From assembly GCF_000027125.1 (NCBI RefSeq), contig NC_017626.1: a stretch of DNA of 64,000 nt; one strand, 5' to 3'. Made by a program: the position numbers. Numbering within the stretch: position 1 is the first letter of the stretch; each line of letters begins with the position of its first letter. This DNA is from Escherichia coli 042 (GTDB lineage Bacteria > Pseudomonadota > Gammaproteobacteria > Enterobacterales > Enterobacteriaceae). Positions 43,201 through 46,200 of this stretch are shown in pieces.

Positions 43201-46200
43201 GTGGCACGCCAGCGCCAGCTCCAGCCCACCACCCAGGCAAGCGCCATGAATAGCCGCGATAACCGGAACGGGCAAAGCATGAATCTCCGCCATTAACTGT
43301 TGACCCTGCCGCGCCAGTGCTTCCGCTTCTTGCGCCGTTTTGCAGTTACCGATCATGTTGATGTCTGCGCCAGCAATGAAGTTGTCTGGTTTCGCGGAGA
43401 TAAACACCACGCCGCGCAACTCTTTGTTTTCACGGAGTTGCTTAATAATGGCGCGCACCTGCGAGGCAAACTCCGCCTTCAGGGTATTCATTTTCTCACC
43501 CGGTACGTCGATGGTGATAACAGCAATGTTGTCCAGACGGACATTAAGGGTAAACGCTGATGCCATTTCCATTATTCCGCCTCCACAACCATTGCCGCGC
43601 CAAGCCCACCCGCAGCACAGGCGGTCACTAATCCAAATCCACCGCCGCGACGCCGAAGTTCATGCAATGTCTGGGTAATCATCCGCGCGCCGGTCGCCGC
43701 GAAGGGATGCCCGTAAGCAATCGAACCGCCAAGCACGTTAAATTTGCTATCGTCCACTTCGCCAGTGGCATGTGCACGCCCCAGTACATCACGAGCAAAA
43801 CGTTCGCTACCCAGCAACTGAATATTCGCCAGTGTCTGAGCTGCAAAGGCTTCGTGCATATCGATCAATGTCAGATCGCTCATTGTCAAACCGGCACGTT
43901 CCAGCGCCAGCGGCGTTGACCAGGCCGGACCGAGCAACATGTCCTGCCAGACATCTATCGCAGTAAATGCGTAACTGCGCAGATACCCCAGCGGTACCAG
44001 CCCTAATTCTTTCGCCCGGGATTCAGTCATCAGGATCACCGCTGCCGCGCCATCGGTCAGCGGCGTACTGTTTGCCGCCGTTACCGTTCCGTGTTTGCGA
44101 TCAAACGCCGGGTGCAGCTTTGCGTAATCGGCAAGCGAGGAATTACCGCGAATATTGTTGTCTTCGACAAGCGGTTGTTTATAAGGAGGGATAAAGGCAG
44201 TCATCACCTCTTCTTTGAGTTTACCGTCTGACCACGCCTGAGCGGCTCGCTGATGCGAACGGTGCGCTAATGCATCTTGCTGTTCGCGAGTAATACCGTA
44301 GGTTTTCGCCATTTGTTCAGCGGTGTCGCCCATCCGCAAGCCAGTAGAGTATTCCGCCACTGCCGGAGGCACCGGCATTAAGTCGCGCAAACGCAGGCGA
44401 GAGAAGAGTTTCAGGCGCTGGCTCATGGTTCGAGCTTTGTTGACATCAACCAGCACGCGCGCCAGTTTTTTACTGACGCCAATTGGCAATACGGAAGAGG
44501 AATCGGCCCCACCGGCAATCCCCGCGCGAATAGTTCCCGCCATCAGGCTTTCTGCGACGTTTGCAATCGCCTGGAAACTGGTAGCGCAAGCGCGGCTGAC
44601 GCTGTAAGCATCGGTATGCACATTCATTCCAGTACCGAGAACAATTTCACGCGCAATGTTGGGGGCTTCCGGCATTTGTACGACCTGACCAAAAACCAGT
44701 TGTTCAATCACTTCGGCGGGAATTTCGCTGCGTGCCAGCAGTTCGCCTACCACCATCTTCCCCAAATCAACAGCAGGAATGCCATGAAAAGCCGTCGCCT
44801 GGCGGGCAAAAGGCGTACGTAACCCGCTAACAATGGCGATGCGATCGCCCTGGCGGGTAACCAGCGGTAAAACCTGACCCATAACACTCCCCTGTAAAAT
44901 AATAAATAAAGTGGTCTGACCTGATCATAGTCTTAACCATTTTTTTACATTTAGCCAAGTGGAGAAAAGGGAAAGTGGGAGCTATGACACAGAGAGAAAA
45001 GTAGAAGAGAAAATAAAACGCCCCTGCCAACAACTGACAGGGGCGTACGTACCCGAGAGGAATTAACGCAGACCCAGCTGGAAGATCAGCATTTCAGCTT
45101 CGCAGGCAAAAGTGAAATCGATATCCAGGCGCACACCGTCAGACTCTTCAGTGAAAGTCGGGGTGATTTTGCACGGTTCGGATTCCACGCTACGGGCTTT
45201 TTCAGTCAGCGCCGCCAGCGTTTGTTCTGCTTCTGCGCGGTTTGCAAACACGCGGCTGTAAGACGCGGTGCAGTCGGAGTTGTCCATAATGGTGCCAACA
45301 TCCATACAGCAGCAAACCGGGGTTTCATCAGCACTACATTTACTCATCGTTGATTTCCTCTGTATGTGCACCCAAGGTGCCAGATAAACGTTGTGGATAT
45401 TTTACGCTTCCGGAAAGTGCTGCTCCAGTTGTTAATTCTGCAAAATCGGATAAGTGACCGAAATCACACTTAAAAATGATCTAAAACAAAATTCACCCGA
45501 ATCCATGAGTGCGCCACCTCCAAATTTTGCCAGCTGGATCGCGTTTCTTAGATCATATTTGAAAAAAGATAGAAACATACTTGCAACATTCCAGCTGGTC
45601 CGACCTATACTCTCGCCACTGGTCTGATTTCTAAGATGTACCTCAGACCCTACACTTCGCGCTCCTGTTACAGCACGTAACATAGTTTGTATAAAAATAA
45701 ATCATTGAGGTTATGGTCATGAGCCAGAAAACCCTGTTTACAAAGTCTGCTCTCGCAGTCGCAGTGGCACTTATCTCCACCCAGGCCTGGTCGGCAGGCT
45801 TTCAGTTAAACGAATTTTCTTCCTCTGGCCTGGGCCGGGCTTATTCAGGGGAAGGCGCAATTGCCGATGATGCAGGTAACGTTAGCCGTAACCCCGCATT
45901 GATTACCATGTTTGACCGCCCGACATTTTCTGCGGGTGCGGTTTATATTGATCCGGATGTAAATATCAGCGGAACGTCTCCATCTGGTCGTAGCCTGAAA
46001 GCCGATAACATCGCGCCTACGGCATGGGTTCCGAACATGCACTTTGTTGCACCGATTAACGACCAATTTGGTTGGGGCGCTTCTATTACCTCTAACTATG
46101 GCCTGGCAACAGAGTTTAACGATACTTATGCAGGCGGCTCTGTCGGGGGTACAACCGACCTTGAAACCATGAACCTGAACTTAAGCGGTGCGTATCGCTT

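Follow-up and report, generated by a model that had tools for sequence, protein, structure and literature searches.

The spacers around yfcZ, which separate the divergent fatty-acid-degradation genes fadI and fadL on the chromosome of Escherichia coli, contain three short sequences that resemble the binding site of FadR, which raises the question of whether these boxes are genuine operators, which regulator they serve, and how they compare with their counterparts in strain K-12. FadR has a winged-helix fold. It is a dimeric member of the GntR family that binds a 17-bp pseudo-palindrome, and when a long-chain acyl-CoA is bound, the DNA is freed (PMC9329746). The evidence assembled here makes it almost certain that the three boxes are operators of this acyl-CoA-responsive repressor at two promoters of fatty-acid degradation. 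The three FadR operators at fadI and fadL are already known, and the window (the entire stretch of 64 kb that was analyzed) adds no variant; the importance of the result lies mainly in the correct annotation of sites that are textbook knowledge on the E. coli fad regulon, all three of which had been correctly located by a reader with access to the sequence alone.

Position and statistical weight of the boxes

The window represents a section of the E. coli chromosome that shares 99% identity with K-12 MG1655 (NC_000913.3) in a pairwise alignment, and positions in NC_000913.3 are obtained by adding 2,415,587 to the window position. A 1-kb query around the boxes has matches in 5,425 of the 5,426 complete E. 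coli genomes. The genes were identified from the RefSeq annotation under the match, the K-12 record, and the ORF list (Table 1). The ATG of fadI lies on the minus strand at 44882; for fadL, an alternative upstream ATG at 45713 corresponds to the older annotation of a 448-aa protein.

The sequence-only reading had pointed out three strings matching the FadR consensus, one just upstream of fadI and two in the fadL promoter. Each of them occurs exactly once in the window, on the plus strand, with starts at 44910, 45593, and 45618. Two of the strings (44910 and 45618) begin one base after the start of the 17-bp palindrome defined by the consensus aaCTGGTCnGACCwGtt, printed as aaCTGGTCnGACC(T/A)Gtt in a 2022 review (PMC9329746). 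When placed in the register of the consensus, all three boxes form 17-bp pseudo-palindromes, the third of which is weak by score alone. The box at fadI reads ATCAGGTCAGACCACTT on the sense strand of the gene, with the core GGTCTGACC, and is indeed located upstream of fadI; more precisely, its center (44917) is 35 bp away from the ATG. The centers of the two fadL sites are 24 bp apart.

Table 1. Genes, promoter elements, and FadR operators in the fadJ–fadL region (window coordinates)
Feature	Position	Strand	Basis or description
fadJ	41428-43572	-	RefSeq/K-12 annotation
fadI, 3-ketoacyl-CoA thiolase, first gene of the fadIJ operon	43572-44882	-	ORF list, RefSeq/K-12 annotation, N-terminal translation
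FadR operator of fadI (fadIJ operon)	44909-44925	.	AAGTGGTCTGACCTGAT on the plus strand; 14/16 specified consensus positions
Alternative -10 element of fadIJ (candidate)	44929-44924	-	TATGAT; overlaps the fadI box
Predicted core promoter of fadIJ	44930-44958	-	TTGGCT (44958-44953), 17-bp spacer, TAAGAC (44935-44930)
Strong terminator-like hairpin, 3' of yfcZ	45046-45018		
yfcZ	45063-45347	-	RefSeq/K-12 annotation
Core promoter of fadL (predicted hexamers)	45581-45611	+	TTGCAA(CA) 45581-45588, -10 TATACT 45606-45611; conserved in ~30 Enterobacterales fadL upstream regions
FadR operator of fadL, site 1	45593-45609	.	AGCTGGTCCGACCTATA; 13/16 specified consensus positions
FadR operator of fadL, site 2	45617-45633	.	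CACTGGTCTGATTTCTA; 11/16 specified consensus positions
fadL	45719-47059	+	ORF list, K-12 annotation

A loose scan with a 10-mer (CTGGTCNGAC, one mismatch) was uninformative, with 17 matches against 9.7 expected, and was therefore replaced by the weight-matrix scan that had been suggested as a check. The matrix was trained on five FadR sites located outside the window (fadBA, two of fadD, fabA, and fadE), which avoids circularity; the sequences were used as printed in papers, namely those of the gel-shift probes for fadBA, fadD, and fabA and, for fadE, that of its box. Among the 127,968 positions on both strands of the 64-kb window, the fadI box ranked first (18.25 bits), and a score of at least 18.2 bits was encountered anywhere in 64 kb in only 4 of 200 dinucleotide-preserving shuffles. 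The second rank was taken by another known FadR target in the same window, the activator site of fabB (26074-26090, minus strand), followed by fadL site 1 with 14.2 bits (0.61 matches of at least 14 bits expected per 64 kb from the shuffles). Site 2 of fadL ranked 12th with 10.4 bits (8.9 matches of at least 10.3 bits expected per 64 kb).

By matrix score, the fadI box stands out clearly and fadL site 1 moderately, so that two of the three boxes are statistically distinct; the score of fadL site 2 by itself does not exceed chance. Further matches of 10–13 bits (at 57755, 60450, 15383, 43936, 20646, and others) are also within chance expectation. At the relevant promoter positions, the number of matches expected by chance is about 0.00007 for the fadI box, 0.0014 for fadL site 1, and 0.008 for fadL site 2, the last value applying to a match of its grade at no more than 30 bp from site 1.

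Operators and promoters of fadL and fadIJ

None of the bases in the three boxes differs from K-12 (NC_000913.3) in the pairwise alignment, and the same is true, base for base, for the 8 bp that separate the two fadL boxes and for the whole core promoter of fadL. The fadI leader differs from K-12 by a single A/T exchange, which lies at window position 44900 in an AT-rich stretch downstream of the box.

The fadL operators of E. coli K-12 were reportedly described as OL1 and OL2 by DiRusso, Metzger, and Heimert in 1993. The window, which stems from another E. coli strain with a region that is 99% identical, has the same boxes, gap, core promoter, and distance to the start codon as OL1 and OL2 in the study of Feng and Cronan (2012), who validated two FadR sites in the fadL promoter that are 8 bp apart (PMC3460868). 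The published gel-shift probes fadL-FadR1 (GCAACATTCCAGCTGGTCCGACCTATACTCTCGCC) and fadL-FadR2 (CTCTCGCCACTGGTCTGATTTCTAAGATGTACCTC; PMC4259882, Table 2) match the window exactly at 45583-45617 and 45610-45644, which identifies the two proposed matches in the fadL promoter as the sites that were assayed with these probes.

Binding of purified FadR and its loss in the presence of long-chain acyl-CoA have been documented for both fadL boxes by gel shifts and DNase I footprints (PMC3460868, PMC4259882). FadR binds the two sites with equal affinity, binding of the probes is essentially complete at 50 nM, 25–50 µM oleoyl-CoA frees the protein from both sites, and the gel shifts agree with the earlier DNase I footprints (PMC3460868). 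Repression is modest despite the presence of two sites (PMC3460868), and fadL expression increases about 2-fold in a fadR mutant (PMC4259882). The appeal of the sequence-only reading to a known repression of fadL by FadR is therefore well founded in binding, release by oleoyl-CoA, and the effect in vivo.

The transcription start of fadL has been placed 95 bp upstream of the start codon (PMC3460868), which, when counted from the older ATG at 45713 and together with the 8-bp gap, puts position +1 at about 45618. With this published start, both boxes fall on the core promoter and the start of transcription. Site 1 extends from about -25 to -9 and fills the spacer between TTGCAA(CA) and TATACT, its right end overlapping the -10 hexamer; site 2 extends from about -1 to +16 and covers the start itself. 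A scan with the sigma-70 consensus missed the promoters of both fadL and fadIJ, its rules being too strict for them, and the hexamers were instead inferred from conservation; for fadL, the position of the putative hexamers is consistent with the published start.

Campbell, Morgan-Kiss, and Cronan (2003) is said to be the source for the FadR site of the K-12 fadIJ operon (yfcYX). A review that refers to Campbell et al. 2003 and to a map of start sites across the genome states that FadR represses fadIJ directly from a site that overlaps the transcription start, and that induction of the operon by long-chain fatty acids depends on FadR (PMC9329746). The box in the window, which corresponds to K-12 positions 2,460,496-2,460,512, is unchanged and is placed as the review describes, at a predicted overlap with the promoter and start. 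Direct binding and overlap according to this review, together with the conservation of the box, support the view that it represents the predicted FadR site overlapping the fadIJ promoter. A full-text search of the literature for the sequence of the fadI box found no FadR paper that prints it, and fadI is absent from the main text of the paper to which a CRP site at fadIJ has been attributed. The suggested comparison with mapped K-12 sites thus yields coincidence of both position and sequence for fadL, and for fadI, identity to the K-12 sequence only.

The elements TTGGCT and TAAGAC are the likely -35 and -10 hexamers of fadIJ, which would put the predicted start at the edge of the box. An alignment of 18 regions upstream of fadI from Enterobacterales shows conservation of these promoter-like blocks. 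The predicted hexamers, including the alternative -10 element, adjoin or overlap the box, which would place the latter at the promoter also in this case, with the probable overlap given in Table 1.

Occlusion of the promoter is the standard model of FadR repression (review PMC9329746), and a steric block is the probable mechanism at both fadL and fadIJ. In the absence of long-chain acyl-CoA, one FadR dimer would occupy each 17-bp pseudo-palindrome. At fadL, a first dimer would cover the -10 region at site 1 and a second the transcription start at site 2, blocking access of RNA polymerase; at fadIJ, the single, stronger box over the -10/start region would allow the same block.

The boxes belong to the same class as the fadBA operator OB (ATCTGGTACGACCAGAT), which is known from the crystal structure of the FadR–DNA complex (PDB 1H9T): half-sites of TGGT and ACC are arranged around a central base, and the operator is located at the promoter/start of a fad gene. 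They differ from OB, which has a TAC center and confers 5–10-fold repression, whereas the two fadL boxes are weaker and less symmetric (4/8 and 3/8 self-complementary pairs) and confer about 2-fold repression. Among the other fad promoters, only that of fadD has two FadR boxes, and its repression is also modest. A distance of 68 bp separates the fadD sites, one of which is a more than 10-fold weaker binder, whereas the fadL sites are separated by 8 bp and bound with equal affinity (PMC3460868).

Conservation of the boxes across genomes

To trace the fadI locus, a collection of species-representative genomes was scanned with a degenerate DNA pattern that represents a conserved peptide of FadI; the scan retrieved 120 loci from Enterobacterales, Vibrionales, Alteromonadales, and Aeromonadales, 107 of them with usable upstream sequence. 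In 104 of these 107 species, representing all four orders, a perfect palindromic core (GGTCNGACC) lies no more than 200 bp upstream of fadI; the background in the same loci is 0.009–0.03 per 200 bp. The exceptions are Providencia vermicola, Photorhabdus cinerea, and Dickeya undicola, the last of which has the core with one mismatch. Across the orders, the center of the box lies 20–90 bp before the ATG, and the flanks are not conserved between orders. In Enterobacteriaceae, the complete 17-mer ATCAGGTCAGACCACTT hardly varies and is preceded by TTGGCT, 17 bp, and TAAGAC. The repression of fadIJ by FadR that the sequence-only reading had taken as known is supported by the review (PMC9329746), and this cross-genus footprint lends independent support to the box.

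At fadL, both boxes occur in nearly all Enterobacterales sampled, with a fixed spacing of 24 bp between their centers and at about -118 and -94 relative to the ATG, which matches the published conservation of the sites and their spacing in Citrobacter, Klebsiella, and Enterobacter (PMC3460868). The core of site 1 is conserved across Enterobacterales inside the -35/-10 spacer, a region that is normally unconstrained, which argues for conservation of an operator rather than of the promoter; part of the conservation may reflect the promoter nonetheless, because the right half of the site overlaps the putative -10 hexamer. Site 2 is more deeply conserved than site 1 and extends to Aeromonas, Aliivibrio, and Photobacterium, where its distance to the ATG is similar. 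A site that is too weak to be called by its score, yet is the most conserved, calls for caution with scans that rely on a matrix only.

The boxes at both fadI and fadL are therefore deeply conserved upstream of orthologous genes in other Gammaproteobacteria. According to a published reconstruction of the regulon, fadIJ and fadL are the FadR-controlled operons that were retained across Enterobacterales, Vibrionales, and Shewanella, and the footprint confirms that their boxes are the old and conserved core of this regulon. Among 5,425 E. coli genomes, the 60-bp core promoter of fadL is 100% identical in 4,781, and the fadI leader varies within the species by 1–3 bases; some strains carry a T for G at position 2 of fadL site 1.

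Related regulators and alternative readings

FadR is perhaps not the sole occupant of the boxes, because genomic SELEX (gSELEX) signals of two paralogous regulators of the FadR subfamily, LldR (effector lactate) and PdhR (effector pyruvate), have been obtained for the same intergenic regions. LldR and PdhR recognize palindromes closely related to those of FadR (AAnTGGTCnGACCAnTT and AATTGGTnnnACCAATT, respectively), and an activation of fad genes has been reported for both, as opposed to the repression exerted by FadR. LldR has a peak in the yfcZ/fadL spacer, and the LldR paper refers to both fadL boxes as LldR boxes (11/14 and 9/14). PdhR has a peak at fadI, where the PdhR paper also presents a smeared gel shift and a lower level of fadI mRNA in a pdhR mutant. 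Counted in the present analysis, the agreement of the fadI box is 12 of 14 positions with the LldR consensus and 10 of 14 with the PdhR consensus.

That the boxes are primarily, or additionally, operators of LldR and PdhR is a possible reading, but a doubtful one. Binding of these regulators would leave that of FadR standing, which has been directly demonstrated at fadL (PMC3460868, PMC4259882), and the boxes fit the FadR consensus (14/16 and 13/16) better than that of PdhR. The conservation of the core upstream of fadI in almost all species examined and the membership of fadIJ and fadL in the published conserved core of the FadR regulon also speak against it, whereas the reported effects of LldR and PdhR are small and stem largely from over-expression or in-vitro selection.

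A shared use of the operators is similarly tentative: the same three boxes could serve FadR as an acyl-CoA-responsive repressor, LldR in response to lactate, and PdhR in response to pyruvate. If so, a single DNA element would bring three carbon signals together in the control of fatty-acid uptake and of the FadIJ pathway. With regard to PdhR, the peak at fadI appears to be better explained by the box at 44909-44925, with its 10/14 match, than by the site assigned in the paper (44862-44878), which matches at 7/14 positions and covers codons 2–7 of fadI. For yfdY/lpxP, the LldR paper also lists a box whose sequence is exactly that of fadL site 1 in reverse complement. A search of K-12 positions 2,494,000-2,498,000 for CTGGTCNGACC with up to one mismatch found none, and the listed box is most likely a table error rather than a duplicate of the site or an additional FadR site.

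The FadR reading of fadL faces a further challenge, namely that site 2, and possibly site 1, owes its appearance to chance resemblance or to conservation of the promoter or the 5'-UTR, which would leave only one real fadL operator. The low matrix rank of site 2, which is of a grade expected several times per 64 kb, the overlap of site 1 with the -10 hexamer, and the repression of only about 2-fold from two sites (PMC3460868, PMC4259882) would fit such an explanation. It is nevertheless very improbable: each site alone binds FadR, with equal affinity and with release by acyl-CoA (PMC3460868), which contradicts a chance origin, a match of this grade is rarely expected so close to site 1, and it is precisely site 2 that is conserved most deeply, from Enterobacterales to Aeromonas, Aliivibrio, and Photobacterium.

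It is just as hard to believe that the palindrome at fadI, a predicted site for which the review states direct binding and conserved hexamers suggest a start position, is conserved for a reason other than FadR, such as a promoter element, a hairpin in the fadIJ leader RNA, or another factor. When the whole window was compared with Rfam, no RNA family matched in the fadI–yfcZ–fadL region, including the palindrome, and a distance to the ATG that varies from 20 to 90 bp while the core remains intact fits a protein-binding site rather than a fixed leader structure. The reported induction of fadIJ depends on FadR (review PMC9329746), the palindromic core is the same FadR recognition core that is found at fadE, fadBA, and fadL, and the box tops the entire window with a matrix that was trained on other FadR sites.

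A known FadR site at fabB

Upstream of fabB lies GGCTGATCGGACTTGTT, the known site through which FadR activates this gene. The 57 bp surrounding it differ from the gel-shift probe published for K-12 fabB in a single base, which lies outside the FadR box (AATT in the window, AAAT in K-12); the probe runs on past the box into the adjoining downstream sequence. The site is additional to those at fadI and fadL named in the sequence-only reading.

Coordinates of features in the window (weight matrix built from five FadR sites outside the window)
Feature	Position	Strand	Remarks
naRNA4 (RF02564), nucleoid-associated ncRNA / REP-type repeat cluster	15018-15361	-	Rfam
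fabB	24787-26007	-	
FadR activator site of fabB, GGCTGATCGGACTTGTT	26074-26090	-	rank 2 by weight matrix in the window
cAgcGGTaaaACCtgac	44862-44878		within fadI codons 2-7
FadR box of fadI	44909-44925		47 bp upstream of cAgcGGTaaaACCtgac
Intrinsic-terminator-like hairpin, strong	45018-45046	-	13 pairs, 8 G-C, then T-run
aaatcacacttaaaaatgatct	45461-45482		about 150 bp upstream of fadL start; identical to K-12
tRNA gene (RF00005)	50933-51004	+	Rfam, 63 bits

Published binding sites of PdhR and LldR

A gSELEX study of PdhR (PMC7660256) attributed its peak at fadI to cAgcGGTaaaACCtgac. This sequence agrees with the PdhR consensus at 7 of 14 positions, and the FadR box of fadI at 10 of 14. On sequence grounds, the FadR box is a likelier binding site behind this peak than cAgcGGTaaaACCtgac. 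In the corresponding study of LldR (PMC10272880), the box printed for the yfdY/lpxP spacer is fadL site 1 read base for base on the opposite strand. A search of this region of K-12 (NC_000913.3, 2,494,000-2,498,000), which lies outside the window, for CTGGTCNGACC with up to one mismatch returned no hit, and the yfdY/lpxP box is probably a table error.

The fadI-yfcZ-fadL region

The predicted terminator-like hairpin, which differs from K-12 in a single stem/loop base, is located directly 3' of yfcZ, where it would shield the fadIJ promoter region (44883-45017) from transcription of yfcZ. On the fadL side, aaatcacacttaaaaatgatct occupies the position of the CRP-cAMP site validated by Feng & Cronan (PMC3460868), which is unusually distant (centre at -157).

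Among the 107 species with usable upstream sequence, the GGTCNGACC core is absent from the 200 bp upstream of fadI in only three, namely Providencia vermicola, Photorhabdus cinerea, and Dickeya undicola. Its absence may reflect either a lineage-specific loss of FadR control over fadIJ or a start codon misplaced in the extraction. Providencia retains both fadL boxes despite a fadI without GGTCNGACC.

RNA features elsewhere in the window

The naRNA4 cluster consists of four tandem Rfam matches of 71 bases each, spaced at a pitch of 91 bp and scoring 77-83 bits. The tRNA gene is situated approximately 4 kb downstream of fadL; judging by its position in K-12, this is possibly argW, at which a prophage attaches.
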